DNA of 64,000 bases from a virus (lineage: Duplodnaviria; Caudoviricetes): positions 32,001-96,000 of IMG/VR virus record IMGVR_UViG_3300021255_001258; one strand, written 5' to 3'. How positions within the stretch are numbered: position 1 is the first letter of the stretch; each line of letters opens with the position of its first letter. The notes beneath the pieces are model-generated. The model saw only the letters and a list, made by a program, of their open reading frames with translations, was not told where the DNA came from and ran no database searches. The translations under genes and the position numbers were made by a program. Positions 21,254-43,518 of this stretch are shown here, piece after piece.

Positions 21254-24200
21254 TTATTTTCTACCGAGTTTTCTTGCTTCTCTAGCATTATATTTGTTTG
21301 TGTATTCACATGCTTGCTTCAAGATATCCTGAAGTTCTGGTAATACATCTCTGGTTACATCTCCCTAAACAGTCAACAGCGATTCATAATTGTTGGTGAT
21401 ATTTGTAGACTGGTCAACTTGAGACGGAATACTCGGCATCTTCATTTGAATGAATGTGTGTGGATCAATTGCGCCCCATTTCATAAGATTTTCTGTAAGA
21501 TTTGCGGGGATTACTCCATCACCTTTAGAGAGAGGAGTGAGGTATGCACCGTCTTTGCGAACGAGGAGTTCGCCGGAGTGCGTCCAGTGAGAGCCAGTAT
21601 ATGGAATACTTGTTATTCCTTTTGCATAGCCTTTCTTTGAAGATTTCCAGCCAGTATCTTTAAGTTTCTTGAGAAGAGCAGCAGCTTGCGTTTCGTTCAA
21701 AGATTTCTGATTAGCGGTTACACCGGAGATTTTTTGATCTACTGCAAGCTATACAAGTTCTTTGTCTGTTGGTGTTTTGCCAGTTATACCTTTTATATAT
21801 TCTTTGAGATTCTATTCTTCGGCTTTCTTTATATCACTTGTGATATTACCTGAACTTGTGGTTGCTGCATTTGATGCTGTAATCTTTGTAGTTTTATTAT
21901 CACTCTTGAAACTTGTTGTGCTTGCAAGGCTTTTGCCATAATTTGCGGACAACACATATCCTTCAAGGTCAAATCCATTATACTGTAAAGCCGTTACAAT
22001 AGCTTTCTTTTGAGCATCTGTTAACTTCTTTCCACTTGCTTCTGTCGGTAGTCCAGAAACATTTGTATATGCTTTACCAATATGTAACATTTCAGCTTCG
22101 GTTAAGTCTTGACCTGTTGTATCATATATATACTTCCATAAAACATCACTTTGTTTTGTCGTAACTGTTCCAGCATCCGGCGTTCTATTTCTTGAATATA
22201 TATATTGACCTGCACCTTGATTTGTTCCAAAACCATACTGCTTCATTGCTGCCAGGATTTTATTACGAGCATCCATTGAAAGATCTTCTTCTTTGGTAAC
22301 TTTGCTCTTATATGGAACGCCCTCAAGATCAGCCCCAAAATCTCTCAGATATTGCGCCAAATGGGCCATTTCTGTAGCTGAAGCATCTTTTCCACCAGTA
22401 AGCTTGTAAAGATAATTCCACAAAGCATCATCTTTATGATTATTAATAGCTTCTGTACTTGCAACTTTACGGGAAGCAGCATAGTTATACATCTTTGTAA
22501 GAGTATTTCTACGTGCTTTTGCCTGTGTAGCAGTTTCTCCACCGGCAGCTTGTTCTGCTTTTTTCTTATCATCCGCATCAGTGTAGCTTGTCTTTTGTTG
22601 GCCGTTTGCCTCAAGACCTCCAACCATTTCCTCATAAGCGGAACGATATTCTCTCATTGCTGTTGTGAGAAGACCAAGATTCTCAAGAGCTTCTTGCGCT
22701 CCTACTGTCATGAATCGAATTGGGTTTGTGCTTATATTATCAACAACGGTTTCCCACTATGTCTAGAAAGAAGAAAGCGTACCTTCATTTTCTTGAACCT
22801 AAGCAGCCCATGCTTGAAGTGGTGCGAGAGTACCATTCAAGTCATCAATTTGTTTTTCTGCTGTTTTTCCGACTACGGTTCCGGTTTGTTTTATCTTAGC
22901 TTGAATTGCACTATATGCACTATCATAATTCTGTTCAACTCGTTTAAGCATCATCGCAACTACTTGCTCTTGAGCTTCTGCATTTCCTTCAACATATTTA
23001 AGCGTATCATCAAGATTCTTTTGTGCTTTGTTTGACAATTCATCGTATCCTTGCTGTTGCATATCTATGCTGTGTTGATAACGAGTATCCGCAAGATCGT
23101 CTTCTTTCTCAGAAATCTAAGCCTTTACTTGTGCAAGGCGGGCTTTCGTCGCAGCATCTTGTACACCGGTAAGGGCTGCCGCTTCTGCGCGAAGCTGTTG
23201 CAATTCTTTATTTTTGCCCTAAAGAGTACGGTTATAATCGTAATAACTCTTTTTGGCTGACAGGCTCTTCTTTCTAAGGTCGATAAGTTCTTGTAATGCA
23301 CGATTCTCATTTGTAATCTACGTCTTATATACATCAATAATGGATTTCTTCAGTTGCTCATTTGCAGACACACTCTGCTGAATTGTCTCTATATGCTGAC
23401 GAGATTCTTCTTCGTATTGCTCCATGGAAATAATTCCAGCGTCATATTCCTCATGTAGTTTCTCAAGAGCGCCACGTTCATTTGCAATAAGTTGATTGTA
23501 ATTCTGAATCTCTGCACCATAGAGCGCAAGTTTTGCGTATCCTTCTTCTGTGATTTCAATTTGGTCACCAGTATCAAATATTTCTGCATCGCTAATAAGA
23601 CTATTGAGATGTTCAAAGTCAGACACTGTTTCTTTAATAATTCTCTGAATTCTTTCGAACGGCTCCCATCTAGTCTTACGAATTGCCTCAGAAAGTTCAA
23701 TGTTGGCAGTAGCAAGAGAGATGGCAGTCTCACGAAGTTGCTGAAGTTTTGCATAACCTTCATTCCACTTATCAGAACCAGGCTCCCATTGTTTCATTTG
23801 CTCTGCAAGAGCAGCGGACTGTTTATCAATCTGAACGATTTCCAAATTGTTTGTATCTATCTGTCCTTGATATGCAGTTCTTCTTTGTGCAATAGATTTC
23901 TGCATCGTGCTTACATCTACACTTGGGAAATTCTTACGAGTCCCAACTTTTTCATAATAACCAGCAATACCTTTAAGAGCACTTGAGAAACGACTTAATC
24001 TTTCTATGGCTTGACCAATAGCGTCAATATCAAGCTGTTTTATTTTGTCGCCCATCTCTACAATAGCAGTATTGGTATCCCAAATGCTTGCCTCAAGATC
24101 AAATAATTTGGCTTTGGCTTCATGATATTCGTCAGTATTTTTCTTGCCAGCCGCCTCTAAATCACTAATGATCTTGGTATATTCGGTATATTGAGACGAC

Positions 24201-27200
24201 AAATATTTCTGTTGTTCTTCAAGACGAACACGTTCTTGATTGTATAACTGTTTGAATGTTCCGCTATTAGCTCTTGTTCCGGTAGCAGTATAATATGCTT
24301 CTTTAGACTGAGTAACTTTCTGAGAGGACTGGACCATATGAAGGAGTCCACCCCATTTTTTATCAGCTTTATCAAACTGCGCTTGAGCAAGTTCAGTTGC
24401 CGCATTCTTAGCAGCCTTCTGGAGTTCAACCAAACTTGTCTTACTTTCCCAATACTCTTGAGTAAGTTGAGCAAGCTGTGTCTGCGCCTCTTGATATTCT
24501 TTACTATTGACACCATATATCTTAGCTGCTTTCTCAAGCTCTTTCTCATAGTCCTTCATTGCCTGTTCGTTGTACTTAACAATTTCTTTCTGACGGACAA
24601 TCTGAGAACCCATATTCTGTCGGATAACTTCGCGGTCTTCACCACCACTTGCCTGATAGTATTCAAGCATAGCTTTTGTGGACGCTTGGATAGCAGAAGA
24701 GCGTTCGGCGAGAGTGCCGTATTTGCTTACAATGTTATCAAGTTTCGTACCTTCGAGTTCTTTTAATTGCTTCTGAAGTTCAATATTTGCATCTACACAA
24801 TCTTCTGCGGCATCTGTCCACTGTTTATAGGATTCAATGAATGTGCGGATTCCCTCATTGTAAGATGTAATATCCAAACTTCCACTATTCAAAGCCTTTA
24901 TAATCTGGTCAGCTTCAGTTGCCGACAAAAGTCCGGCATTAATAGCCTCAGTACGAACTTTATCTGCCTATGTTCTATAATTCTTTGCGGCTGTTTCATT
25001 ATTGCTGATTTGTTTTGTTACAAGTTTTGCTGCCTGATCAAGATAATTGTTCTTGTCTCTTGTATTTGTTGCAAGTTCGGCACGGCTTGTAAGACGTTCG
25101 ATTTCACGGTTTGTCTTTTCAAGTGTGATTTCGGCCATGTTAAACCAATCAGCTGTGGCCTTTTGGAATTTTTCAATTGCTTCTTTTATTGCATCTTCTG
25201 TTTCCTTAGCGGCATCACTAACAGTGCTTGCGACTTTTTTGCCTGTATCTTTTGCAGTATTAGCAACATCTTTTCCGGTATTTGATGGAGTATTTGTACC
25301 TGGAGTTCCAGGTTTAAATTGTATGCCGCCATTTCCGCCATAATGAGATGGCATACCATTATAAGCCAACGTCCCACTAGCCAACGCACGAGCGCCACCA
25401 ATAAGATGACCTTTACCAGAAGCTCGACCAGTTGACATGAGTGCCTTAACTTGGCTATGAGAGAGTATGACGTCACCTTTCTTCAGGTTTTCAACATGCA
25501 TACCTCCCGGAAGAATCGAGAACACACCGTTCCTAATTAATCCTTCCGCGCCGACCTCATTTACAAGTGCTGTCTCATCTTCCTGTAGAGATACATTTGT
25601 TCCTCTAGCATGAGCCGGAATTGCATTGACAACATTATAAGCAGTACCAGAAGCGTGAGCATGGAATGTTCCGGCTGCATCGCTTCCCTGAGCTGGCATT
25701 CCACTTACTCTAGCATGAACACTAATACTATATTGCTGATTCATGATATTCGCGAGTGCACTTGTTATTCCCGTCGTGTTTGCACCAACAGTAATTGTGG
25801 CAGTTCTATGGTTAATACTAGCCACAGCAATATTCGCAGCGTTAATTGCTTCAGAATTATCGCCAGCAATCTTCATAACTGGTTTCTTATTGCTAGCATA
25901 TTTTTCGGCAACATCCGCTTTGGTTCTTACATCGGAAGAATCTCCATTAATTTTCATTTCCGCCGGATTGTCTTCAGCATGCGCCTTAGCTGTATCAATT
26001 GCTTCCATTGCTTTTGTATTATCAGCGACAACATCCATTTTTGCTTCTGTTATTGCCTACGTGAGGTCTTCTATTTGTTCGGACGAAATTTCAACTTTGA
26101 TTGGTGCTTCCAAACTTTCAATCTAACTCTTAAGTTCTGCTAATTCTTGTTTGCCCTATTCGGTGTTAAGATCAATATTAAACTCTTTTGCAAGATCTTC
26201 GTCTGCTAACGATTTCAGTTCTTCAAGTCCAGATATTACTTCGTCTTTTCCTTCGAGGATTGTATTAATGTGTATCTGACGATCATATGTTTTAATTTCG
26301 TTATCTGTTGCGAGTGCCTCGTCGGATCCATCCTCCATGCCTCGTCTTGCTTTTATTAATTGGACTTTCCTTTGTTGCAATGTTTCATTATCTAATTGAG
26401 AAATGTCACCACCCAAATTAAACGAGATATCAACATCCCCGCTTTGCTGCAGTTCTTTTATTTTTTGTCTACCCTATTCAAGCTATTCATTAAATTCTTC
26501 TGCCCCTTGAATAGATGGACCAAATTCTGCATCGGGTGTCCAATCAATAAGTCCCATCTAGGACAAAACAGTCATTAATGCTTTGCCATATTCCTGACCA
26601 AGACCAAGTTCTTTTAAAATTCCATCGAGAGCCTATTCAGCACCTTCTAATTGTGTTTTCCCATCACCAAATTCAATTGTTCCAAGTTCTTCGTCTGAGA
26701 ATTGTTTAAGTGTATTAAGATACTTGCTGATGGCCTCGTTGTAACCATTTATCTTATCACCATCAAATAACTCATGATTGTGCGCAACTTCGGCATATCG
26801 GTCTGCCATTTCTTTTGCGTCTTCACCCTTAAATGTTGCCATAAGAACAGGCAATTCAACCTATTCACCATTTAATGCTTTCTCGGCATATTCTTGCAAT
26901 GCTTCTGGTTCTAGTACATCGCCATTCGGAAGGATTGGTGTCATAACAACGGCTGTCTGATTATCATCGCTGGTATACGTCTAACTATATAATGTCGCAT
27001 AATCTCCATCGAAATCAGGATAAAATTCTTGCATCATGCGAGGAGTAACTCTGGCTCTGTGATTTAAATCAACATCTCCAAATTGAGTTCCAGACACGAA
27101 ATCCGTCATTGCAGCCTCATAACTAGCGCGATCAATTGTAAAATCTTTCAAATTAATCGTAACACCGTATTCATCTGCCATTCTCTGGACTTCGTCCATG

Positions 27201-30200
27201 ATACGTTTCATACCAACTTGATCACCCATATTCTCCGCCGTAGTATAAGCCTGACGAAGGGCATCAACTGTATCTGGTAAATTCTTAAATCCTTCAATGA
27301 AAGACTACTGAGAACCAGCAACATAATTATTTGTGGCGGTATCCAAATTAGTAAGGTCATCTTTTAATCCTTGAATCTGATTACGTTTTTCCGCCAACAC
27401 ATCTTCGCTCGCTCCGGCAGCAACAAGTTGTGCATATTCAAGTTGTGCGTCTGTCAACTGTGTTTTGAGGTCGCTTGCTTTTGCAGAAGCTTCTTCAAGA
27501 GAAGATACATATGCAATATTTCCACCGTAGTCATTGATACGCCCCATCATGTCCATAAAGAATTCATCAGACATACCCATTTCAAGAGCGGCTTTTGCAG
27601 AATCCGCAAAATCAAGAGAATATCCAGTTAATGCATCGTATGTTGCCAATCCTTTAGAAACAAGATCATTGAGGAAATTGGTAACTCCAGATGCGTCATC
27701 TGTGAAGTATCTTTCAACTTTCTTATAATTCTGCTCAAATGTCTTCCAATCAGTTCTTCCGAATGGATCAAGATATGAGGCGCGAGTCTTGAAATCATCG
27801 GTTCCAATAAGTCCCTTATCAAACAGTTCCTTGCCAGTCTTCATATAACCTTGAGCTGTCTCATAGTCAGCACCTTCATTCTTCGTCTGGTCAGCACGGG
27901 CAATAGCAGCAAGACGAGAGAAGTTCTGCATTTGTTCAGCATAAGTAGCATAATACTGAGCCTGTTGACGCATATATTCAGCCATTTGTTCATTAAGTTC
28001 ACGAACTTTGGAAGTATCTCCGGCTTTCGACGCACGGTCGATTGCTTCCTGGATTTCATCCATCTTTGACGCAAAGTCCTGATTAATGATTTCATTCTGC
28101 TGTTCCGCAAGCCTCTGCAGTTCTATCATGTCAACTTTGACACCGTCAGCCGTAGCATAGAACACCGATGAAATGTCTGCTTCATTGGCAAGGTTGCTAA
28201 ACTGTGTGGTTAACTGCTGAATCGTATCAGATGAAAGTCCAGTTTCGGTTGTCATTTCTGACATTGCAGTCGAAATAGCAGAAGAGAGTGCTTGAGCATC
28301 GGAGATTACGAGGTTTTTGATTGTATCGTCGTAATTTGCGATGTCACCAAGGAGAGAAGAGATAGAGGAGTTGTTGGCATCGATTTCCTGACCAATTTCT
28401 CGCCTACGATCCGCAGTGGTTTCAGTTTTTGTAGCTTCTTCGGCAAGAAGTTTATTTTGTGTCCTCAAATTCGCAATCTGGTTCTTACTAAGGTTCTGAA
28501 GCGTTTTATATTCTTTCTCTGTTACTTTAAGTCCCTATGCTTGCTTCAAAGATATAAGGTCATTGATTTCCTATGCTTGAGATTTATATTCATCTAATGC
28601 GTATCCAAGTTGTTTAAGTTCATCATTGGAATAAGCAGAAGAGTATGTGGATGCTTGTTCACGAGCCGACTGAGCATTTGCCGCATGTTCATTTGCGTAA
28701 CCAAGATATTTTACTCTAGTAGCATCGCTTGTTACACGAGAAGCAGCATTTTCCCAATATCTTGCCATAGTATCTTCTTGTTCTGCTGTGTTTTGATATA
28801 ATTCCTGTAAAGAATCATATGTCTTCTTGGTTGTTCTTTGGCCTGATTTTTCGTTCTTGGCAACCAAATTCTCAAGTTTATCAATTTCTGTCTTGTTTAA
28901 GTCAACTCCACGTTGATACGCATTTGTACCAGCTTCAAGCTGTTCTGTTTGAAGATTTATTAAATCTATTTGAGATTGCGCTAAAGCCGATTCAGATTCA
29001 TTTAACGCTTTTTGCGCAGCTTTGTATGCCGGAGAACTGGTATCATAAATCCTATTTCGTTTTTGTCTCTTGTTGGAAACATCTTCCTGATTTAATCTGA
29101 TCGTTTCTTCTGCATTTCTTATAATCCCATCATAGTCGGCCTAAGTGATAATATCACCCTTTGCTTCTTTATATTCAAGTTCAGATCTACGCTTTTGCGT
29201 ATCAGAATCAAGCCTTTCTAGTTCTGCTTGTATTTTTGCTGTATCTGCATCAATTTCCCAGACCATCTTCATGTCTTTGTATTTTGCATAGATTTCGTCT
29301 GCTGTGCCGGAGAATTGGTCGGAGGCGATCATTTGATAAACTACGTTCCAATTGAGTTCTTCGTCACCAAGTTTTCCTTGGAGGTCTTCGATCTAAGAAT
29401 CAAAAAGTTTAGATAATCCTTCACGTTGCGCATGAGTGGCAGCATTGACATCAGCCGTAGCATTTAATTCCATAAACAAATCTTTTACATCCGATGATTC
29501 ATCTGCTAAATTCCCCATGGAAGATACAAGATTCTCGACATATGTATTTAATTGCTGTAATCCTTCAGCGGACATACCATCAACATTCGCACGAAGTTCT
29601 TTAATCCACTCTGTTAATTTTCCGACCGCCTTGTCGGATATTGCTTTTTCTGTAAACTCTGTTAAATCTGGGAATGAATCCTGAAGTGTCTTCATTTCAT
29701 CGGCTGTTAATGTACCATTTTCCCGCAAAGATTCAAGTGCTCCAGTGAGAGAGGAGAGTGAAGTTTCAAAAGATTGTGCTTTCTCCGCATAACCCTCATC
29801 ATTAAATATAGAAGATAAATTATCTGTAGGTTCAACTTTTTGTATTTCTTTTCTCGCCTCTTTATATTTCTCTAACCAATTTAAGAAATCTTCCAAACCA
29901 GAACCTTCATAATCAAATTTGCCTTTGATTTTTGCCTCTTGAACTAAATCAATATCTTCAAGACTAATACTACGTACTTCGTCCGAAGAAATTCCGAGTT
30001 CTTCTGCAAGACTGTCAAGATCGGCGGAATCCGAATAAAAATCTCTACCAGTTTTTTCATCCACATAAGTAAGACCAAGCATTACACGAATATTTTGCCT
30101 TATTTTATATGATTCATCATCATCTCCTGGGACAATTTCTCTAAGAACTTTGGCAAAATTATCTCGATATTCTGTGGTACTTAATGATTTATCTGAAAAT

Positions 30201-33200
30201 GCATCTAATAATTTCTTCGCATTATCTTCGGATGCTTTTGATATTTCGCCATTACTATCTGCTAATGCAGCAACAAGAGGATCAAGAAAACGTTTCCGCA
30301 AAAATGCTCTTGGATCATCACCCAATAAATTCCAATCATCATCTGATAATCCCTCTAAATCTAAATTCGTAATATCGTCAGCAATAATCTATTGCAACTA
30401 TTCTCCAACTTTAAGGTCCCCAAGTTTTTGATAATCTTCGTAAAGATTCATTTGAGAAATAAGCGAAGGAACTAATGCATTCCAATCAGCTTTTACTTCT
30501 GCCATATCGCTCTTCTTGATTGAAAGAGCTTTTATATACTCCTCCGGTAAAGAGCCTAAATCTGCTGATTGTACGGCTGCTTTAAATGTTTTTTCAAATT
30601 CTTCCACATTTTCTTCTGTCGCATCAGCAAGATTTAGAACAAGTCTACCAGCGGTAGAATCTGAAGCGGAATAATCCACATTCTTATAAATGGAATTTGC
30701 TGCATCAACGTACATCTTAGTAATCTGGTCAACAACCTTTTGCATACTTGGATCGTTCGGATCATAATCCCACCTAAGTGTACCGTTTTCGTCTAACCCT
30801 AATTTAGAAATGTCAATTTCAGCACCCGTTTTCCCGGCTTTTATTGTGTCTTGTATTCCTTTTACCGTATTTACTATATCTGTCTGCCGAGCAATATCTT
30901 TCTATAATTCTTCATATCTAACTTGAAAGCCCTTTAATGCGGTTCCTAATTGTTCTCCAATCTAAAAATCGGCAAGCTGCCTTTCTTCTTCTAATAAAGC
31001 AGCGATACTTTCTTTTGCTTTATCTGCGTTGGCGTCTAGTGTAAGAATAGCATTCCCTTGCGAATCAAATCCAGAAACGAGACTTGGGAAAAGATCTGCC
31101 ATTTGTTGATTCAGTGACAAGAATTCCTGATATTTCTCTGTTGATAACTCTCTGTTAGAGATTCCTTGATTTGTATAATCTACGCTTTCACGAAGTTTTA
31201 AATAATCACTAAGATTATCTTCCTAATAAGTTCGCCTTTGATCATATTGTTGCCGAATATCTGAAATCCGAGATTGTGCCTCTTGCCCTTTTTGAATCGC
31301 GATTTCTCGTCTATTGACATAATTTGAAATAGCATTGATTGTTGCACCAAGTGCTGCCGAAATTGCCATGGATATCCCAGCATTGACAACAGTAGAAAGG
31401 ACTGTACCTCCAAGAGATTTTAATCCAGATATTAGTTTTGAACCGCCACCTTGAGTTTGACTTGCGGTCTATTTTTCTAATTCCGCCTGTTGTTCTTTTG
31501 CTTTGCCAAGCGCTTGCGACAGATTCATTGCCTCTGTACTTGCATTTGCTAATCCTTGCACATATTGTTGAGCAGAAGAGGAGAGACCTTTAAAATCGCT
31601 CGACTATATAAATGTATCAAGATCTACAGAACTTCCGCCAGCTTGTTTAAATGCTTTTTCTAATTCTGGTATAAGATTCTGCTGTACGCCTGTGCCGATG
31701 CTCTTTGATGCGGATTGACCGAATTTCTGGAATATATTGGAGAATTTTCCTGATTTTCTGTCGAAGCCTAAAAATCCTATATCTTTGAAATTTGACAATA
31801 CTCCAAATACTGTTCCGACTATCATATTCAACCCACCAAAAGCGTCGGCGAGTGATGTGATTACTTCAATAGCTTTTGTACCAAAATCGATAATACCCTT
31901 AATCCAAGAAGAATCAATTGTAGTACTTATAAGTTCCTGGAGTCTGTTTTGGAATTGAGCCACTCGGCCCTCAATAGAATCGAGGTATTTATTTAGCTCC
32001 TCGTCGGCTGAACCGAGATAGTTATTCGCTGATGCTTCGCGTACTTGTTCCAATATGTCGCCATTCTAGAGAATACTGGCGACGATGTTAGATCTGTTTT
32101 TCCCAGCAAGCTATTCAACAAGAGCCTATGCTCTATTCGTTCCGCGCTATTTATCTTCAGCCTAAATCTCACTATAAATCTTTGAAATGTCTAACAAAAT
32201 ATCATAAGTGTCCCGCAAATTCCCGTTTGGGTCAAGAACACTAACACCTTTATACATATTGCTTGCAACTGCTGTATAATCACGAATGATTTGATCAGTT
32301 TTGGATCTGGTACGTACAACGAAATCGTCAACATCTTCACCCATATCAGCAATTTCGTTCTTGGCCTCTTCAGTGCCTGAAATACGAAGAGCAATTGTAC
32401 GGATACCAGCAGACGCTTTGCTCATATCTTGTCCAATAAGATTACCAGCTGTCAGAAGAGCAAGAGTCTGATCTAAATCATTTCCCTAAGTTTTTAATAC
32501 AGCTCCTGCATTTTGTAATCCTTGTGCCAGTTCATCTGTGGATACGGCAAAATTATTGCCAATAAGATTTAACTTATCAACAATGTCTGAAGCAGTAACA
32601 TCGGTGTAGGCCTAAGTAGCAGATACTAATGCATCTGTAGCATCTTTTATGTCAGTAAATTCTGAAACATTCAAAAGTTTTGTTGATATTTCGGCCATAT
32701 TCGCAGCTTCTGGTAAGTTCTTGCCAAGTCTTAACCAATCCGCCGTAGAACTCTGAATTTGAGAAGCAGTAGTACCAACACGGTCAGCAATATCAAATGA
32801 TTCAAGCTGATATTGTTGTAATGTCTATAAGCTCTCATTTGATACTTTTCGCATTTCGGTAAGCTGAGTATCAAGTTCAGTTACAACAGATATTGCTTCA
32901 CGGCCATAACGTATAAAGTCCTGGAAACTCAGATAATACGTTGCAAGACTCGTCATTGTGTTCTTGAACTGGTCTTTGAAACGATCACCGAGAGATTTAC
33001 CAAGTAAATTCTTGGAAGCCGCATCAGATTGAATTCCACTAAATATATTTTCAAGTCTAGAGGCTTCAGCCTCATTGTCAACTGCTGCGATTTGTCCTTT
33101 TAACGTTTCTAATTGTTCGCCGAATTCTTTTGCGGCGATTTTATTCTGATTTGCCCATGTTTCAATTTTAGCAGTAAATGAGGATTGCCACGTTTCTCGG

Positions 33201-36200
33201 ATCGGTAAGAAATCTTCACTCTTCATTGTAGCCTTCATTCTGCCAATAAGAGCATCGAAAGCCTTTTGGTTTTCTTTATAATCCCGTGTCCCGATATTTT
33301 CTTTAAAAACAGTTGCTTCTTGTCTAAGTTCATCAATGATATCTTTCCAATTACCTTTTCGCCAAGAAGACTATTTTTCCATGGTTTCCAGTTGGTTATT
33401 TAAACCCTTTGTCCATTTATCAGAAAATTCTTGCGACACATCTGCTTGGAGTTGAGCAACTGTCTTTAAACCACCCGTCATCTTTTCAATAAATTCCGCA
33501 CCTTGAGCAATCTTTGCATTCCATTCTGTTTGTTGATCGGTCATATAACGAGCTAAATCAGCCATTCTTGCTTCATCTTGTGTACTGATTCCGCCACTGT
33601 TTTGCATACGATATAGCTTTTTATATTCTTCGCTTTCTTTTCTGTATATTTCAATTTGTGTTTGTGTATCAGATTTTAATGTCCTTAATGTCGCATTCTT
33701 CTAAGCAGTAGCTAGAGCATCTATACTTTCAGCCGTACCTTTTGATGAAACAGCAAGTTTATCTATGGCGTCCACATATTGTTCAACACTGATTGCTCCC
33801 TGTTTATACATATCATTTATTTTAATGATTGCATCATTTGCAGCTTTGGCAGCACTTGCAGATTTTACAGAAGCTTCTGCCAACTATGTGTCAACGGTCT
33901 TTCCGTTTACTTGTTTCGTTTCAATTTTATTTAACTCTGTTTTGGCTTTAGTTGCCGCTTCAATTGTTGCTAAAAGTTCTTTATATTCAGCAGTAGCATC
34001 CTTTGTCGGATTTGCGGTTGTTTTGCCAGTTGTTCCGGATCCAGCTGCTTTTCCGGCGGTTGCGATCTTCTTCTCACTGGCCTCAAGAATTTTCGCTAAA
34101 GATTTGAGTTCTTCACTTTTTTTAAGCAGTTCATTTAGAGAGTCGAAAGCAGAAGAGTTGATGCCCTCATTCGAAAGTTTCTTGAAAGATTCTCCGATTG
34201 TATCAATTGCCCAACTTGCGTCTGTGAGATTTTGTACAGTATCTTTATTGACCTTGACATTATTGATAGACTCAAAGAGATCTTTCAGACCACTAAGAAC
34301 ATTGGTGTCATCGCCACCCTTGAAAAGGTTCTATAAAACTTTTGCGAGTTCTTCAACTTTACCGATTTCAAGATCAATAAGATCGCTTACCTCAGCTTGT
34401 TCTCCACGAAATGCCTGAGTTTTTACATCTACGGCTTCTGGGATTTCACCAACGAGTTTTGCTCTTAATTCGTCAAGCGCATCCTGTTCAGCCGACATTG
34501 CTTCGCCAACTGCTTTGGACTCTTGTTGAAACGAATCACTGATAGCAGTAGAAGAGGGACTTTCTCCGGTAGCTTCCTTTTTTGCGTCGGCAAGTTTTTC
34601 TGCATTCTTTGCGGCGTCAGCGTATGCTTCACTTTGTTTTTCTATTTCGGTAAAATCGCTTAATGCAGACTTGCCTTGTAATGACGCGTCTTCAATATTA
34701 ATTTTTACAGTTCTTTCTTTAGTTAAATCTTCAAGCTAGTCTTCTGCTTTTGATGTATCAATTTTAACTTCAATTGGTTTCTCTAGTTGTTGTGGGTAAA
34801 TAGAAGATAGCCATTCGTCTTGATCCATTACTTTAAATATTTCTGACGGATCTAGGCCATAAGACTTAATAGCATTTTTTAAAGCAGACTGTTTTACTTG
34901 CATGTTTTCATTTTCCGTCAAAGATTTAAAACGCTTAAATTCCTTGCCAATTAAATCATCAACGTCATATAATACATCATCACCAATTTTTTCTGCATCT
35001 AATGAAGATACATTTAAACCCTTAATTCGTTTCTGGATTAATTGTTTAACCGCATCATCTAATTCCTCTGTTACAACTTCTCCTCCATATGTCTCATTTG
35101 AAGATATCCTTTTTTGGATATTCGAAGTTATAGTATTCATTATGTCTTTTAATAAATCCTAAGAAAGACTATTATCCACTATTGACCCAGAAAATGAATT
35201 GGTTATTGTTTCCTATATTTTTCCCCGAATAATATCTGCATAATTCTATGGTAATAAATCCTATAATTTTACATTTTGCGCTTTCTATTGTAACTTTTCT
35301 GTAGATTCTTTATTCCAATTTTGCGAAAATTTTTCTTGCAAATCACTTGCTTTTACACCGGACGAAACAAGTTTTTCTATATCCAACATTGCAATTTCTC
35401 TGCCAGCTTTTACAAACTATTTTGTGATACCTTTTTTGTATTCCGTTTCAAGCATATTCTTAAATTCGTCACCAGAAAATGCTGCATAATTTACATTGGG
35501 ATGCGTATGAAGAACGCTATTAGCTTTACCACCAAGATAATCAACTAATTTTCCAGTATGAACACCTCGGCCCAATTCTTGATTAACATAAGATGCAATC
35601 CCCGTTATATCATTAAAAGCAATGCCTTCTTCTGATTCTTGTTTTCCATATAAAGAATCAATTTCCTTCATTCCTTTTAACAGATCCAATGATTTCGCAA
35701 CGGGACCATTCACTGAAATATTTATCTCTTTTGAATCTGGAAGTTCTTTAAGGGCATCATTAATCTTATTAATGGCCTCTAATGCCTAATTTGGGTCAAT
35801 ATCTATAGTTGGAGAACTAACAGTTTCACCGCTTACTCCATTAGTCTAGCTAGAAGATTGAAGTTTCGACAATTCTTGTTTCAATTTATCTATTTTCTAA
35901 ATTTGCGCATCGATCATATCATCAGATATTAAATTATCCAATGCAGCGTTAGCGTTTGGCAGATAGTCTGCCTAAGCAGTTTCAATCTATTTCAATGCCT
36001 TTACTAATTCATCACTATTTATCGGGGAACCTGCAAAATGTTTTTTATAAGTCGCATATAAATCCATAATCCTTTTTTGCTTTTTATCAATTTCTTCTGG
36101 ATCAGATAATTTTCCAAGTTGTTCGATTTCGTACTTCAAATAATCTTTTCTAAACGTCGGAGCATTAATAGTAGAAGTGCGTTCACCTTTTTTACTGTTT

Positions 36201-37546
36201 AATCTATCTAATTCTTCTTCGGCTTCTCGGATTTCTCCTTTTAATTTTTCTATTGCTTCTGTAGCATTTCCAACTCCGTTAGCAACGCTTTGACCAGAAG
36301 ATTGTCCGGCTTCTCCCATTTCTTCTAATGATTCGGCAGCATCTCTTGCATCTGACCCAGTTTGTACAATAGAATTATTTTTACGACGAGACGGTATTTT
36401 CTCATTGTCTTCTTCAGCTCGCTTTTGCGTGTTTTCGACATCTCTTTCAACTTTTTTTTGTTGTTTTCCAGCCGTTTTTGACAACCATTCATTAAGTTCT
36501 CTTTTTGCAGCATCAACATTCTGCTTTTGTTTTTTCGTCGCTCTTTCGGCATATGCTATCTAAGCTTGGTTTAAATCAGAAACTATTTCATTCCGATCAT
36601 AATTACTTAACAACAACCCCTGAGTGTCTTTGGCAATCTTGAACTGTTTTATCATCTAATCTTGTAATGAAGATAAACGAGTAAATACATCGAATATTTG
36701 TTTCGATTGTTGCAAGAACCCTTCGGGATTAGTTTCTGAAAATTCTTTCTTTTTGGCAATCAATTCATCTAATAAAGCAGCCGTTCTTGAATAATCGTGA
36801 ATTAGTAATTCTCCATTATCTGATTTTGTTGTATTTAATCCTTTAGTAATTCCTAATTGTTTAGCTAGTTCCAATCCTTTGCCTTTTGTGAACTCTCCAC
36901 GACTATTCTTTTTTTGAATCTCTTCATTGATCTTATCTCGGCTAAGATAAAACTTATCTTGATGTTTTTTAGCTTCGTCAACTGCTTTTGCATAATCTTG
37001 TTGTAATGACACTTGTTCTCTCAATTTCTTTATCACATCATCTATTTGCTTATCAGTCATATATTGGAGAGAAGTCCTATTAGTTAATGAAGCTAATAAT
37101 TCTATCTCATCTTTGGTGTGAGAGATAATGTCATATAAATCCTAAGCACTTTTCGTCGAATCTAAAAAACCATCTGTAATTCTACTAAAAAATGGAGTAA
37201 GATTTACATTCTACAAAGTTTTCGATGCAATTTTCTTAATCCCATCAAATGCGCTTTTTAACCCTAACTAATCATCGTCTAATTTTAAATTTTTCTTTAT
37301 ATCTCCCTATAGCCCACTTAATAATTGTTGAAAACTTTTCTAGTCCCCTTCAAATCTAATAGTTGCACTTGGGTCGGCATTTTGAATCTTTTTTAATACA
37401 TCTTGCAGTGATTTCTAATCACCTGTGAATTTAATTAATAATTCATTATCAGCCATCATTGACTAAACATTTGCCATTTCTTTTGTGACTTCTTTTGCAA
37501 TCGCAGAAGCATCCGCCCCCACGGTAAATATATAATCATAAGCCAT
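21254..37546 (-). CDS. Giant tape measure protein, ~5430 aa (recoded)
   Basis: 22 track ORFs share the frame of ATG 37546 and the junctions inspected are TAG; tape-measure core (ELDTQLTEMRKVS, GNNFAVST, AGKNRSNIVASIL); ends TAA TAA. Not every gap was checked codon by codon. Confidence 0.85.
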
Positions 37547-37560
37547 TTACTCACCACCTT

Positions 37561-37986
37561 TCATATACTCAAACTTCCAATATGACGTTTTACAATTTCT
37601 GGCAATATATTTGCCGTAAATAATTTTTGCCATTTAACCATGGTTCTATTCCCAGGTTTACCTCTATAAATCTAAGAAGTACCATGAATTCCAAGGCCAA
37701 ACCCGCCATTGAATACGTATTCTCCAGGGTCATGAGTAGTAACCACCCCAGACGCGTCTGTCGTAATTCCCGCTTCAAATCCATCGTCAAGCTATACATA
37801 ATGGTCGTGAACAGTATTATAAAAACTATAACTTCTCGCATAATAATTAGGATCGTAATCATCATAAAAAATATCTATTACACGATTATATGTCTCATTT
37901 GTACGATCAATAATTTCATGAGCAGCACCGACTAAACGATCTCTAATCTTGTCCTCAACGATTTTCTATAATTCTTCCCCAGTCAT
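37561..37986 (-). CDS. Hypothetical (tail completion-like) protein, 141 aa, three TAGs; missing from the track
   Basis: ATG 37986 to TGA 37561 is open when TAG is sense; GGAGGT RBS; GIHG motif. Confidence 0.65.
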
Positions 37987-38032
37987 AGCCCATACACCTC
38001 CTTCCGGCGTATGAACTACGCCAGTATCAATA

Positions 38033-38581
38033 TTATTTTACTTGTTCAATTAATTCTTTTACTTTATCTAAATCTAATTCCTCCAAAATAGGCGAGAGAG
38101 CAGTACTAATCAATGTCCCAAATCTTTCTACCTGCGCCCGGATGAACGCATGATTCTCATATTCGTTTGTCATCAAATCATCGCAGGTCATCTGCAATAC
38201 CATATTAAACTCTTTCAATTCTCGATCGTCAATATTCTGGATAATCAGATCTAAAACTCCAGAACCATTAAGAGTATTAAATTCTTCTAACGATTTGCCC
38301 TCATTCTTGGACCGCTCAATATCAGTATATAAATCTATCATGCTCAAACAGGTGAGCATATATTTGGCCACACTATCAATATGGAATTCCTCACGCTCGA
38401 TTTCGCCGCGATTTTTCGTCCGCTGATAATAGCTCGCTTTTACAATCGCTTTCGCAACATCTGCTTTTTTCTCATATGGAACATAATCATTTTTAACGTG
38501 TTCCTTTATAAATTCCGCCTGTTTTTCAGGTGTTTTCTTTGTTTTATACATAGTCATAAATGGTGTAAGTTTCATAGTCAT
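38033..38581 (-). CDS. Hypothetical protein, possible tail assembly chaperone
   Basis: 182-aa ORF with RBS, two genes upstream of the tape measure. Confidence 0.65.
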   Translation of the reverse strand: MTMKLTPFMTMYKTKKTPEKQAEFIKEHVKNDYVPYEKKADVAKAIVKASYYQRTKNRGEIEREEFHIDSVAKYMLTCLSMIDLYTDIERSKNEGKSLEEFNTLNGSGVLDLIIQNIDDRELKEFNMVLQMTCDDLMTNEYENHAFIRAQVERFGTLISTALSPILEELDLDKVKELIEQVK

Positions 38582-38769
38582 TTCTCCTTTTCTAATTCCT
38601 TATTATGTGTTCAAATCCTTTTCAATACTTTCTATATCTTTTCAAAATCATTGAAAAGAATTCGAAGTATAAAAAATTTGGGATGGAGGGTTATCTCCAT
38701 CCCCATAATATAAAAATATGTTAAGATAAAGCCTTATAAAAATGTTACAAACTATAAATTAACTAAATA

Positions 38770-39192
38770 TTATTTATTCTACATTTGATCAACCAAACGT
38801 TTAATTGATTCACGATCCTCATTGTTCTGAGCCTCATTCATCAATCTTGTCAGTTCGTCAACCATATACTGTTTGCTATCAGTACGGCTGTATCCACCTC
38901 TACGGGGATAATTAGATCTGCCAGAACGATAACTATTACCATTGCCCATATTATCATAACTATTACCAGGATACCATCTCTGAGAATATCCACCATTACG
39001 GTTATATCCATTGGAGTATTCCTCTTCACCATAACCAACGCCCTCTTCGAACATTTCAACGCTTCCAATGTCCTTAAGAATGTCTACAAGTTCTCCGAGG
39101 ACTTTTACTGTATTCATATCAAGTTTTCCAATATGAGAAATTTCATCGATCTCGCAATATACTAAATCTTTTACTGTGTCAAATTCTTTCAT
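38770..39192 (-). CDS. Conserved phage hypothetical protein with Gly/Tyr/Ser/Arg-rich low-complexity centre
   Basis: GGAAGGAGG RBS; GYSQR/GNSYR/GYSR repeats; TAG read-through adds QNK before TAA. Confidence 0.75.
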
Positions 39193-39209
39193 AATAATCC
39201 TCCTTCCTT

Positions 39210-39680
39210 TTATCGTGAAACCATAAGGTCAGGACGGGATAAAATAATATTCGCGTTCTGGACCAAAATTGGTTGTGTAGATGTATTTCTGACAGCGATT
39301 GTCTCACAACATCCTCTCCAGATCTGAGCATTTATAGCCCGAGAAACGTTGAAATATTGCTCAACCGCGGCAGGTGTCACAATCATAGTGGAAGAGGGAA
39401 TAGTAGAACCATCAATGGTGATGGCGACAGAAATCGGCTCAACGGTACCTCCTGTCGGAATGGCTATATTCGCTCCAAAATCAATGAGATACTATGCCGA
39501 GTTGTCACGGCAACAACGACATCTACATCCGTTATTTGGAACATATCCGGCCAACAGGAAATTTCCTGTGTCATCGCGATGTCTTACAAGACCACGATTG
39601 CACGGTACGGGTGCCTCGGTAAATATAATTGTTTCACCTGGATTTACTGTCTGAACGGCATTTGCACTATATTCAGCCAT
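39210..39680 (-). CDS. Cys-rich beta-sandwich hypothetical protein, 156 aa
   Basis: TAG 39492 read through to TAA 39210; GCRCRCCR, FGANIAIP, RGCC, VQNANI. Confidence 0.8.
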
Positions 39681-39696
39681 TTACATCCACCTCCAA

Positions 39697-40416
39697 TCAC
39701 GCATTAATTCCACAGCATCCATAACCATAATTCTGGTTACAGCAGTAAGGAGAAGGAACGGTATATGCGGGAATTGGGGTGGGATTGAGGTACTGCTCAA
39801 GAGCCATCGTCTGAGCGGCATTATCCGCCAGAATCTTAGCGGTCTGGGCATTCTGAGAGGCTGCAAGATTTGCCATTGTGAGCTGATTCTGAAGGTTAGC
39901 AATCTGTTCATTTTTAGCATCTATTTTATCCTGACACATCTGGTCAAGAATGCGCTGCGTACTTGCATTATTTGCGGTAATGAGATCTCTTAATGCGCTG
40001 TCTACGCTAGCACGGTCAGCGCAAGCTTCTGTAGCAACCTAGAACTGTACATCCTTGATTGCCGCTCTATTTTCGCAACAGCAATTCTGCTGTGCCATAG
40101 CGATGGTATTCATCTGATTGGTCAGATTGGCAAGTGTATTTGCTCTGGAGATTTCAGCATTAGCAAAACCATTAGCAACAGTATTGTTAATACCAGTAAG
40201 GCCAGACATGATCGCAGCCTGGTCGAATCCATTCTGAACATCACACTATGTTGCAAAACTGCCACCATTGCCGCCGAAACCATTTCCCCATCCATTATTT
40301 GCAAAAAGAAGAAGAATAAGAAGCCACCAGGCTCCATTGTTTCCGCCAAATCCATCGTTATTGTTTCCCATTACAGCTGCAAGATCAGCAGCGCTCATTC
40401 CATCCGTTAATGCCAT
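39697..40416 (-). CDS. Gly-rich/hydrophobic N-terminus, coiled-coil, Cys-rich tail hypothetical protein, 239 aa
   Basis: ATG 40416 with AAAGGAGG; GFGGNNGAWWLLILLLF, QNCCCENR, PIPAYTVPSPYCC; internal TAGs. Confidence 0.8.
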
Positions 40417-40462
40417 AATATTATCCTCCTTTATAACAGAAGGCCTTATCTTAACATTATTT

Positions 40463-40735
40463 TTATCGATTTGAATATAATTGATTTGCCAAATTTTCCG
40501 CAGTATTTATCTAATTTGCATTACCGTTCATGCTCAGATAATTTACAATTGCTTGCGGATTATTTCTGTACGGTTGCAAATCATTGTACTGCTACATATT
40601 AATTTTTCCATTCTAAAATAAAAGATCCAGGATTTTGCCCGGATCTCGTTTTAATTGCATATATTGATTCATAATATTGCCGACAGGAGAATTGTTTATT
40701 CGTCCGCCTAGCATATTAAACAATGGATTTGCCAT
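40463..40735 (-). CDS. Small Gln/Asn-rich protein, 90 aa, three TAGs; missing from the track
   Basis: MANPLFNML...LLF*NGKINM*QYNDL; start overlaps the upstream TAA. Confidence 0.75.
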
Positions 40736-41229
40736 TACTTCTGCACATCCTTTCTATTCTGATTACGAGGTTTTAACTCATTAATCCGTTTGTTAATAGC
40801 GGCGATTTGCGCATTTATAGCATCCAATTGCTCCTTGGTTGCATACTCAACAGTTGGTAAAGCTTCTGCTTTTTCCTCTGTCTTGTTATCCAATACATCA
40901 CGATTTTTATAATCCAAAATGGTCATTGAAGGCTTACCAGCCATATCAACAGACTTTATATAAATTGTCTGATTTTCACTATCCCAGAGTGCAATATTGC
41001 ATCCGTTCGGGACCATATATGACTTCGCCGCTGATTCACCTTGAACCCAAATTAGATTTGTATTATTTTGCTGCATTGAATTGTAAGATGGGAGAGCAGT
41101 ACTCTATTGCGGTTGGTACTGCTGATTCCACAATCTAGGAGTATACATTTGTTGGTTTACTTGTGGCATCCCCTGGTATCCTTGCTGTGGATACTATTGT
41201 TGAGGAAATGCGCCCTGAAATGTATTCAT
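40735..41229 (-). CDS. Gln/Pro-rich hypothetical protein, 164 aa
   Basis: Extended upstream through TAGs to ATG 41229; WVQGESAAKSY..LWDSE..IYIKS motif. Confidence 0.75.
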
Positions 41230-41230
41230 A

Positions 41231-41632
41231 TCACTCATTTGTCTCTTCCTCCTTGGTTATTTTCTCAAAATAATATGTGGGATTCATATCTCCGCTATCG
41301 AATGAATCATAGTAATATCCATTTATTATGCATACGGCATGGCTGTCTGTGCCCAGCACGAATGTGCCAACCGGATGGTCATTGCAAAAATCTATCACAT
41401 TATAACAAGAGATACATTTGCGTAATAATGAATGCTCATTAAAACCTTTCTGAATTAGATAATTACCCCAGACCTGATTCGATGATGGGAGATCAGACAT
41501 CATAAAACCCTATAGACATAATTCCGTATATGTTTTTTCCCACGTTTGACCTGTTGCTTTTGAAATTGCTCGTATGACACAATCACCCACATGTTTTTTT
41601 AAAGGATTTGGATTGTAAAATACAAAGCCCAC
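41231..41632 (-). CDS. Putative papain-like (Cys-His-Asp) peptidase-fold protein, 133 aa
   Basis: NPNP..VGDCVIRAI...HAVCII..YDSFDS; GTG start; one TAG. Confidence 0.6.
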
Positions 41633-41704
41633 ATCATCACCTCTTATGTTAATAAATAATTAAAATTATTCTTCCGGTGTCAGTTATTCTGTATCTTCCA
41701 GATA

Positions 41705-42136
41705 TTATATTTCTTTAATAATTATTTCCGTCCTCGGATTATCTTTGTCATAATCTGTTTTAAGCGTAAGAGAGAGAAGATGATCTCCACTGTCATCTGC
41801 AATAAATCCAGCCTCCGTGAATGAATCAAGAATAAATTTTGGCACGTAATTATCAGGATCAGCTCTACGCTTAGTTGGCATAAAAGTAGTGAATATCATT
41901 TCAAATTTTTCTAAATGCAGGTTATTAAGATTTTCTCTATTCATCCACCAAACGCCAAAATCTTTCCAACGCTATTTTAAATCGTTCATCTGTGGTCTTT
42001 GCATAATAAACCATTTATTAATAGATTCATGGCGAGGAGCCTATATTGGTTTCTTTCTGGCCCGTGGATGTTCTTTAAAATAAAAATCAGCATACTCATC
42101 AATGAGCTGCTGATCTAAAATTAATTTATATTCCAT
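41705..42136 (-). CDS. RusA-like Holliday junction resolvase, 143 aa (two TAGs)
   Basis: RRADPDNY..KFILD...FIADDS...NPRTEI motif. Confidence 0.8.
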
Positions 42137-42137
42137 A

Positions 42138-42236
42138 TTGACTTTTCCTTATATTCATGTATAATAAATTTCGGTAAATGATTTGTGTGATTCATTCACC
42201 TCAAGAGCGGGAGAGTAGTTGTCCTGCTCTTTTACA
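42138..42236 (+). ncRNA. Candidate small RNA (~65 nt) with its own promoter and terminator
   Basis: TTGACT-16 bp-TATAAT (42138-42165), then a hairpin and an AAGAGCGGGA/TCCTGCTCTT-TT terminator; no ORF. Confidence 0.45.
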
Positions 42237-43262
42237 TTAAATAAACGCCTCGTCCGATTCATCGTCTTCCGAATTGGTGATAATATAATGACCCTCTGTA
42301 GTTTCAACACTTTCATGACCCAGTAATTTCTGTGCTACCTTCGAAGACTTGTGATCATATAACACAAGGTTTGTTGCAATTGATTCCCTGAACAAATGAG
42401 GATGAACACGTCTTCCTACCAGTTTCGTAAGTAAACCAGAACACCAATCATTAAATGTACCATCTGATACCTGACGAACAGTTCCGTCCTTTTCTTTTAT
42501 TACAAACACATATGGACAGTCGTCTTCGCCGCGAACCTCCAGCCACTTCTTTATTGCTTTCATAACGTCTTCGCTGAACTTTAATTTCCGTGGTTTCCCA
42601 AGAACACTTGGACCTTTACAGCGAATAGTATGAGTTAAATAATATCTAGATATAACATTTTGTTCTTGTCCATCTTCGTCGATTATTTTCATTTCTTTCT
42701 CGATTACAGGATAATCAACTACTTCTTTAAGTAATTGCCGACTCTCTGCCCTACGACATCCCGTTCTATAACTAAACATAACCCAACAAAGTTTTTGCCA
42801 TTCTCCGAGTTCCTTTAAATCATTACAAAGCTTCTCGTATTCTTCTGGAGTCAACGGCTGTTTTTCGTGGACATAACCAGTTTTAACAACTTTCATACTG
42901 GATGTTACAAAACTTCTAAAGGTAGGATATTCGTCCTCGTAATATTCAACAATGAAATTACAAAATGAACTAATCACAGACTTTTTTATTTTAATCGCAG
43001 AATCAGATAAACCGCGATTTGTAAGCCAGTTAAGATAACGAACAAATTCTTTTTTCTTGATTTCAACACAATCTTTATCATTTAAATTTTCATATACCCA
43101 CCAGAAGAAAATACGTAAACTGCTTCTATATTGTATCTTCGATTGCTCACTTAATTCAATTTTATAATCAAGAAATTCCTATACCATATCCCGATTAAAC
43201 TTATTGACTTTCTCCCACATCTCGTCAGTTATATCATCAGATCTTTTAGCTATTTGTCCCAA
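42237..43262 (-). CDS. Tyrosine recombinase, 341 aa (one TAG near N-terminus)
   Basis: TGCRRAE, HPHLFR, LLGHES..TEGHY; TTG start with GAAGGTG. Confidence 0.9.
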
Positions 43263-43518
43263 TTTTATCACCTTCTTTCTGCTGTCCGCGCCTTGTCCAA
43301 AAATCATATGCTTCGTATGTCTCATCTCGTTTAAACACGAACAATACTACTTTTTTACCAGGATTTTTGCGATCATCCGAAATAACAACATCAACTGGAA
43401 CAATACCAAATTCATTTATATAGCAATCTACTTGCTGCAGGTTAAGTATTCGTACATAATCTTTGCTGAAATAATCATATTTTTTGCCAGAAATTCCGCG
43501 TTTAATATATTCTTCCAT
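43246..43518 (-). CDS. Hypothetical protein
   Basis: 90-aa ORF with GAGGTG RBS. Confidence 0.65.
   Translation of the reverse strand: MEEYIKRGISGKKYDYFSKDYVRILNLQQVDCYINEFGIVPVDVVISDDRKNPGKKVVLFVFKRDETYEAYDFWTRRGQQKEGDKIGTNS

Follow-up and report, generated by a model that had tools for sequence, protein, structure and literature searches.

A putative long-range RNA helix closing a three-gene cassette in stop-codon-recoded rumen phages

Phages use host RNase III on their polycistronic transcripts, setting the stability of the pieces, as at the early and late sites of T7 and in the sib retroregulation of lambda, where the enzyme acts on local hairpins, placed between genes or else following a terminator. 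In the precursors of 16S and 23S ribosomal RNA (rRNA), the flanks pair to form processing stalks that close a loop of 1.5-3 kb around a whole functional unit, and the sequence of these flanks drifts while the pairing stays. Long-range pairing in bacterial messenger RNAs (mRNAs) has been recognized only recently, and the documented cases are short, extend over a few hundred nucleotides (nt) and concern single genes. In Bacillus subtilis, RNase III cuts long-range mRNA duplexes of 10-36 bp with a 2-bp stagger, across spans of up to 505 nt (Taggart et al. 2025, PMC11780869). Pairing between the leader and trailer of one message is known from hbs of B. subtilis, where a 14-bp interaction between the untranslated regions (UTRs) at the 5' and 3' ends alters nuclease access by modulating RNase Y cleavage (PMC5737220), and from icaR of Staphylococcus aureus, where the 3' UTR pairs through a 7-nt motif with the Shine-Dalgarno region and feeds RNase III, leading to cleavage and a translational block (PMC3868564); both interactions are short, monocistronic and conserved in sequence. 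Here we analyze 64,000 nt of DNA from a virus of the Caudoviricetes (Duplodnaviria), positions 32,001 to 96,000 of the IMG/VR record IMGVR_UViG_3300021255_001258 and hereafter the window, in which two complementary arms flank a cassette of three genes (A, B and C) and are proposed to pair in the late transcript.

The resulting helix extends the known long-range mRNA duplexes. As in the B. subtilis cases, distant segments of what is probably one mRNA would pair, the host context is that of Bacillota and the arms, at 19-46 nt, fit the described range; unlike those duplexes, which lie mostly within or around one gene, the phage helix closes a loop of 1.7-2.8 kb with three or four complete genes, and whereas cleavage has been demonstrated in B. 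subtilis, cleavage of the phage helix is predicted. It resembles the rRNA processing stalks in loop size and in the persistence of pairing through sequence drift, but its loop is a translated polycistronic message that has no known maturation pathway. Compared with hbs and icaR, with which it shares the pairing of leader and trailer, the phage helix has two to three times the length, surrounds a segment of an operon and changes in sequence among relatives; the Shine-Dalgarno pairing seen in icaR is absent here, where the helix only abuts the Shine-Dalgarno sequence, and does so in the window. It differs from the T7 and lambda sib sites in being built from two arms that flank a gene cassette. 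We found no description of a stalk around a phage gene cassette in the literature searched.

The window belongs to a viral record of 127 kb, obtained from ruminant gut samples and estimated to be 65% complete; the genes of the window are encoded on the minus strand and can be read only when TAG is translated as glutamine (TAG=Q). The outer complementarity with its single bulge, reported in a preliminary description of the window, was reproduced by sequence reading, by a repeat finder and by gapped alignment, all three agreeing on 25 Watson-Crick pairs, one G-U pair and one bulged A (Table 1). The inner helix is likewise present, with eight Watson-Crick pairs and one U-G pair, and both substitutions are wobbles on the sense strand, as had been stated. 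In the window the stem also abuts the Shine-Dalgarno sequence of the first gene, the inner helix adjoining its GGAGG, and further weak pairing extends from there to the gene A start codon. The arm sequence occurs at only these two places in the 127-kb record, and when the full 1.8-kb RNA of the window was folded, the arm-arm helix was part of the minimum-energy structure with P = 0.93. An Rfam scan of positions 37500-42500 returned nothing relevant, the only hit being a chance match to mir-616 (E = 0.39), and neither the window nor the 127-kb record was found to hold a second stalk.

Table 1. Positions in the window of the paired arms, the genes that they enclose and the adjoining signals, in the order of transcription.
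Feature	Position	Strand	Remarks
Outer helix, 5' arm (27 nt)	40440..40466	-	First bases overlap the TAA stop codon (40465-40463) of the upstream 90-aa gene
Inner helix, 5' strand (9 bp)	40430..40438	-	Directly adjoins the Shine-Dalgarno sequence
Shine-Dalgarno GGAGGA of gene A	40424..40429	-	Start codon at 40416-40414
Gene A (239 aa, two TAG=Q codons)	39697..40416	-	phrog_16490; no Pfam match
Gene B (156 aa)	39210..39680	-	phrog_20016; no Pfam match
Gene C (140 aa)	38770..39192	-	Helical ends, G/Y/N/R-rich middle; homologues define the stalk-bearing subclade
Inner helix, 3' strand	38743..38751	-	19 nt past the gene C stop codon
Outer helix, 3' arm (26 nt)	38710..38735	-	
Intrinsic terminator (9-bp G+C-rich hairpin and T run)	38670..38703	-	Strong; begins 6 nt past the 3' arm

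Complementary flanks of differing sequence were also found around homologous cassettes. We retrieved about 190 loci with gene B homologues; a search with gene C alone yielded no loci beyond this comparison set. Homologues of gene C, at 54-95% identity, define a subclade of TAG-recoded phages that share the gene order recombinase, resolvase, small genes, A, B, C, two small genes and a giant tape measure, and within it co-folding of the gap before gene A with the gap after gene C gives the helix at the same two positions in 12 lineages (the window, L003/L102, L007, L008, L009, L010, L011, L093, L095, L096, L110 and L111). Their layout is common to all: an upstream stop codon, the 5' arm, genes A-B-C, the 3' arm and a terminator. 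The arms are 19-46 nt long, the 3' arm starts no more than 34 nt past the gene C stop codon and, in 11 of the 12 lineages, ends 0-6 nt ahead of the terminator stem. For most arms no alignment between lineages is possible, even in L007 and L093, which are 81% identical in the surrounding DNA. Pairing of each leader with the trailer of its own locus gives -32 to -48 kcal/mol, compared with -20.8 +/- 4.2 kcal/mol (mean, sd) for pairing with trailers of other loci, cross-pairing being confined to sister loci. Full-length RNAs of 1.8-1.9 kb, folded for four loci, contained the arm helix in the minimum-energy structure with mean pairing probabilities of 0.74-0.93. Where sister arms can be compared, a U-G pair in one of L003 and L102 is C-G in the other and pairing is retained, and between L008 and L009 five one-sided changes retain the pair while one breaks it. 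The claim that the stem encloses exactly three genes stands for the window, with its open reading frames (ORFs) read as TAG=Q, but not for L003 and L102, where an inserted 351-aa ORF adds a fourth to the loop, which grows to 2.8 kb while the helix is kept. This comparison of sequences gives good support to the view that the complementarity closing the cassette is a selected long-range RNA helix.

We assign a probability of roughly 55% to a specific role for this helix, namely that it forms in the late sense transcript and acts as an RNase III processing stalk for the cassette mRNA. The stalk would join the gene A leader to the 3' UTR after gene C, beside the terminator hairpin, turning the three-gene message into a closed 1.7-kb loop, and a duplex of 26-45 bp with few bulges is of the kind that host RNase III would naturally act on. 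Cleavage with a stagger would then free the cassette mRNA from the upstream late genes and from the terminator, and the new 5' and 3' ends, remaining in the leftover duplex, would be poorly accessible to a 5' exonuclease of the RNase J1 type and to 3' exonucleases. The likely outcome would be a tricistronic mRNA that is discrete and long-lived and whose abundance is independent of that of the neighbouring genes in the operon. Processing appears to be the most likely role of the helix because a duplex of such length is a natural RNase III substrate. A farther-reaching version, which we offer as tentative, is that an rRNA-style stalk excises the three-gene messenger and keeps its ends paired, giving a pseudo-circular, exonuclease-proof mRNA, and that the stalk evolves by concerted replacement of both arms. 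Such a pseudo-circular mRNA may also favour re-initiation by terminating ribosomes, and concerted arm replacement, probably through DNA template switching, would explain why the arms of sister phages are unrelated.

Several observations weigh against a selected helix with this role. In this genome alone, the pair is not clearly beyond chance, its score lying inside the range reached by shuffled genomes. Column-wise covariation cannot be computed, the arms being unalignable between lineages except for L008/L009 and L003/L102. The excess of G-U pairs in the arms is moderate against a compositional null (binomial p = 0.023, Fisher p = 0.057). The RNA runs consist of short contigs of related strains that show no ends, strand or cleavage sites. 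Promoter-like hexamers are placed, at five loci, downstream of the 5' arm and upstream of the Shine-Dalgarno sequence, and would give transcripts that lack the 5' arm. Finally, eight close relatives within the subclade (the L005 group, L107, L109, L114 and L119) have no helix, and the helix is therefore dispensable or replaceable. In these helix-less relatives the terminator directly follows gene C, and the leader is instead equipped with a G+C-rich hairpin plus two to four purine repeats of Shine-Dalgarno-like sequence; these leader elements, of kinds known as stabilizers of 5' ends in Bacillota, fit a role in stability and suggest that the two solutions are interchangeable. In a tree of B and C, helix-bearing and helix-less loci are interleaved, with at least three changes of state.

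The question of chance was addressed at two levels. By chance, the window is expected to hold 0.07 copies of an 18-nt core when as many as three mismatches are allowed. In a record-wide scan for any wobble-tolerant inverted pair 0.3-6 kb apart, the helix pair ranked first with a score of 50, and the top scores of three shuffled genomes were 44-53, so that the case rests on comparison. The non-randomness comes from the placement of the arms in two intergenic gaps and from their recurrence in relatives. That shuffled genomes attain similar single-pair scores would be expected if the complementarity were a neutral and functionless by-product, arising by template-switching inverted duplication or by chance in A+T-rich spacers, and the fast turnover of the arms and their absence from eight close relatives point the same way, as does template switching, which could explain the joint change of both arms. 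We nevertheless consider such a by-product very unlikely, given that the pairing recurs at the same two gaps in 12 lineages, that pairing with the arm's own partner is far stronger than cross pairing and that no comparable pair exists elsewhere in the record. Beyond the subclade, about 125 distant gene B loci (about 60 viral and 65 from bacterial genomes) gave no intergenic arm pairing above controls, which also speaks against a neutral by-product; the few high scores among them fall in coding sequence or in a transfer RNA gene of G+C-rich genomes.

We then weighed pairing at the RNA level against a DNA-level inverted repeat, in which the arms would be either the recombination sites of an invertible on/off cassette, with the tyrosine recombinase close by as its possible enzyme, or a mobile element's terminal repeats. 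The preliminary description had taken the two wobbles to favour an RNA stem over a DNA recombination site. On the sense strand, a strand-neutral alignment of the arms gave 331 Watson-Crick pairs, 33 G-U, 6 A-C and 18 transversions, and mismatched control alignments gave G-U and A-C in a ratio of 171:76, the sense strand being rich in G and T; the wobble argument is thus weaker than claimed, but an RNA-level helix still fits better than a DNA recombination site on the grounds of the 12 lineages, the position of the 3' arm and the invariant orientation. In all 12 lineages the 3' arm belongs to the transcription unit, being placed on the terminator's inner side. In the window, the 5' arm would be transcribed together with the upstream gene, since it overlaps that gene's stop codon and only 46 nt separate this stop from the start of gene A, a gap that leaves little room for a separate gene A promoter.

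In favour of a DNA-level repeat, the arms do bracket a discrete cassette, and a tyrosine-recombinase gene lies 1.8 kb upstream (43415-42237), with a Pfam Phage_integrase match in relatives. These features recall the invertible segments of Mu (G) and P1 (C) and the invertons of tyrosine recombinases, where inverted repeats likewise flank a phage cassette with a recombinase gene nearby; unlike those systems, the cassette has no conserved repeat core, no second orientation in any relative and no alternative genes of opposite direction, and its recombinase also occurs where the repeat is missing. No core is shared by the arms of relatives, the flanking genes lie on the strand of the cassette in 81 of 81 hits across relatives (21/0, 24/0 and 36/0), and DNA contigs from an independent sample (run X2) cross both arms in the reference orientation, with no inversion junctions seen in the contigs of runs X1 and X2. 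Loci that carry the recombinase gene include some with the helix (L110, L115) and one that lacks it (L107). The three genes share a single direction, and inversion could therefore only silence them. An inversion switch is thus unlikely, because the orientation of the cassette never varies and the arms have no conserved core, and the terminal repeats of a transposon or a miniature inverted-repeat transposable element were rejected on finding a single pair in 127 kb and no direct repeats in the bases outside both arms. Overall, we hold a DNA-level repeat to be highly improbable, and the RNA helix remains the preferred reading.

The tyrosine-recombinase gene (phage integrase family; 42237-43415, minus strand) lies within the late region and is followed by a RusA-like resolvase gene (41705-42136), and the two are kept together in relatives both with and without the stalk.

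The closest rival to processing is a protective clamp, in which the 5' and 3' ends stay paired and uncleaved, so that RNase Y or RNase J1 and 3' exonucleases would be kept off the leader and the 3' end, in the manner of hbs. The geometry is suitable, given that a 3' arm that abuts the terminator hairpin, as it does in 11 of the 12 lineages, would bury both ends, and the modulation of RNase Y cleavage by the hbs interaction (PMC5737220) provides a precedent. Moreover, the leaders of relatives carry other candidate 5' stabilizers, namely repeats resembling STAB-SD elements (PMC4113751) and G+C-rich hairpins, and these are more frequent in helix-less loci. Perfect duplexes of 26-45 bp, however, are expected to be cut by RNase III wherever the enzyme is present, and the 5' arm may not be near a 5' end. 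For these reasons we judge an uncleaved clamp unlikely, and cleavage of the stalk by RNase III remains the favoured role. The record, which is 65% complete, yielded no phage-encoded gene for RNase III or for RtcB ligase.

Between one and four Shine-Dalgarno-like repeats, purine-rich and of the GGATTAAAAGGA type, precede the true ribosome-binding site of gene A in L005, L099, L104-L106, L113, L109, L007, L008, L093 and L095, and these leader repeats look like STAB-SD 5' stabilizers. We also considered GGATTAAAAGGA as a phage promoter motif and rejected it, as it shows no enrichment in the window (17 matches compared with 11.5 expected).

The position of the inner helix in the window, where it ends beside GGAGG with weak pairing on to the start codon, raises the further possibility of end-to-end translational control, as had been proposed, by which the ribosome-binding site of gene A would be occluded or exposed, or terminating ribosomes would be returned to the first start codon. 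A parallel exists in icaR, whose 3' UTR pairs with the Shine-Dalgarno region and feeds RNase III (PMC3868564). Among the relatives, however, 23-87 nt separate the end of the 5' arm from the start codon downstream, and the 3' arm does not pair with the Shine-Dalgarno sequence. Occlusion of the Shine-Dalgarno sequence is therefore not a conserved feature, the proposal does not hold as a general function, and we see little prospect that translational control is what the helix is for.

As regards transcripts, contigs from the RNA runs are 90-97% alike to the cassette, with one 137-nt piece identical, and they cover parts of the three genes; we draw no conclusion from them. Promoter-like hexamers also occur inside the upstream ORF at some loci. 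In the window, the upstream 90-aa ORF contains a terminator-like hairpin with a T run (40622-40647, minus strand), directly followed by an in-frame TAG, and after this TAG comes a promoter-like TGGAAA-16-TACAAT (40583-40610, minus strand). Similar -10-like hexamers stand at an equal distance from the arm in L007, L093 and L011, and these may reflect conserved Y-N codons.

The enclosed genes are themselves of interest. Gene B has more than 7984 homologues, none of them named, and it carries conserved Cys clusters. Its AlphaFold model (predicted local distance difference test, pLDDT, 88.9) is a C1q/TNF-like jelly roll, and the nearest matches to this model are the C-terminal domain of BclA together with ExsFA and BxpB of Bacillus spores (Foldseek E ~3e-7, TM 0.65-0.70). 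Gene B is thus predicted with high confidence to encode a jelly roll of the C1q/TNF type that resembles Bacillus exosporium proteins. Rumen Bacillota, among them Anaerovibrio, Butyrivibrio and Selenomonas isolates, have relatives of gene B in their genomes, and the strong GGAGG sites of the phage agree with hosts of the rumen Bacillota type. The gene A product has a G/N-rich N-terminus, a hydrophobic stretch, a coiled coil and a Cys-rich C-terminal end. In L009 (2215-2346), gene A is interrupted after 43 codons by a TGA or a frameshift while the remaining gene aligns, and this may be an error in the sequence, a programmed recoding event or a sign that the gene is broken. The 351-aa ORF between genes A and B of L003 (1908-3001) and L102 (1938-2993) gives a faint match to PF05265 (DUF723) and may be a mobile endonuclease-like gene.

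Downstream, an imperfect 22-nt palindrome lies at 38610-38666, between the cassette terminator and the next gene (38581-38033), for which relatives give a weak YomO-like match; the palindrome may serve the tail-assembly and tape-measure genes as an operator or promoter region. The tape-measure gene is one ORF of 5430 aa with 64 TAG codons (21254-37546, minus strand), and its counterparts in relatives range from 2313 to 6507 aa and match PF10145.

In these stop-codon-recoded rumen phages, a whole cassette is enclosed in a 1.7-2.8-kb loop by a helix of 26-45 bp that has been maintained through complete turnover of its sequence. The two arms and the terminator would form a compact, sequence-independent module for stabilizing polycistronic messages, and the locus provides a test case for the rapid joint change of both sides of a long helix. 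The regulation of the enclosed genes is of interest in its own right because gene B belongs to a very large unnamed family with a predicted fold like that of exosporium proteins. If the proposed processing is true, phages would use a processing device like that of rRNA to set the stoichiometry of their late proteins.

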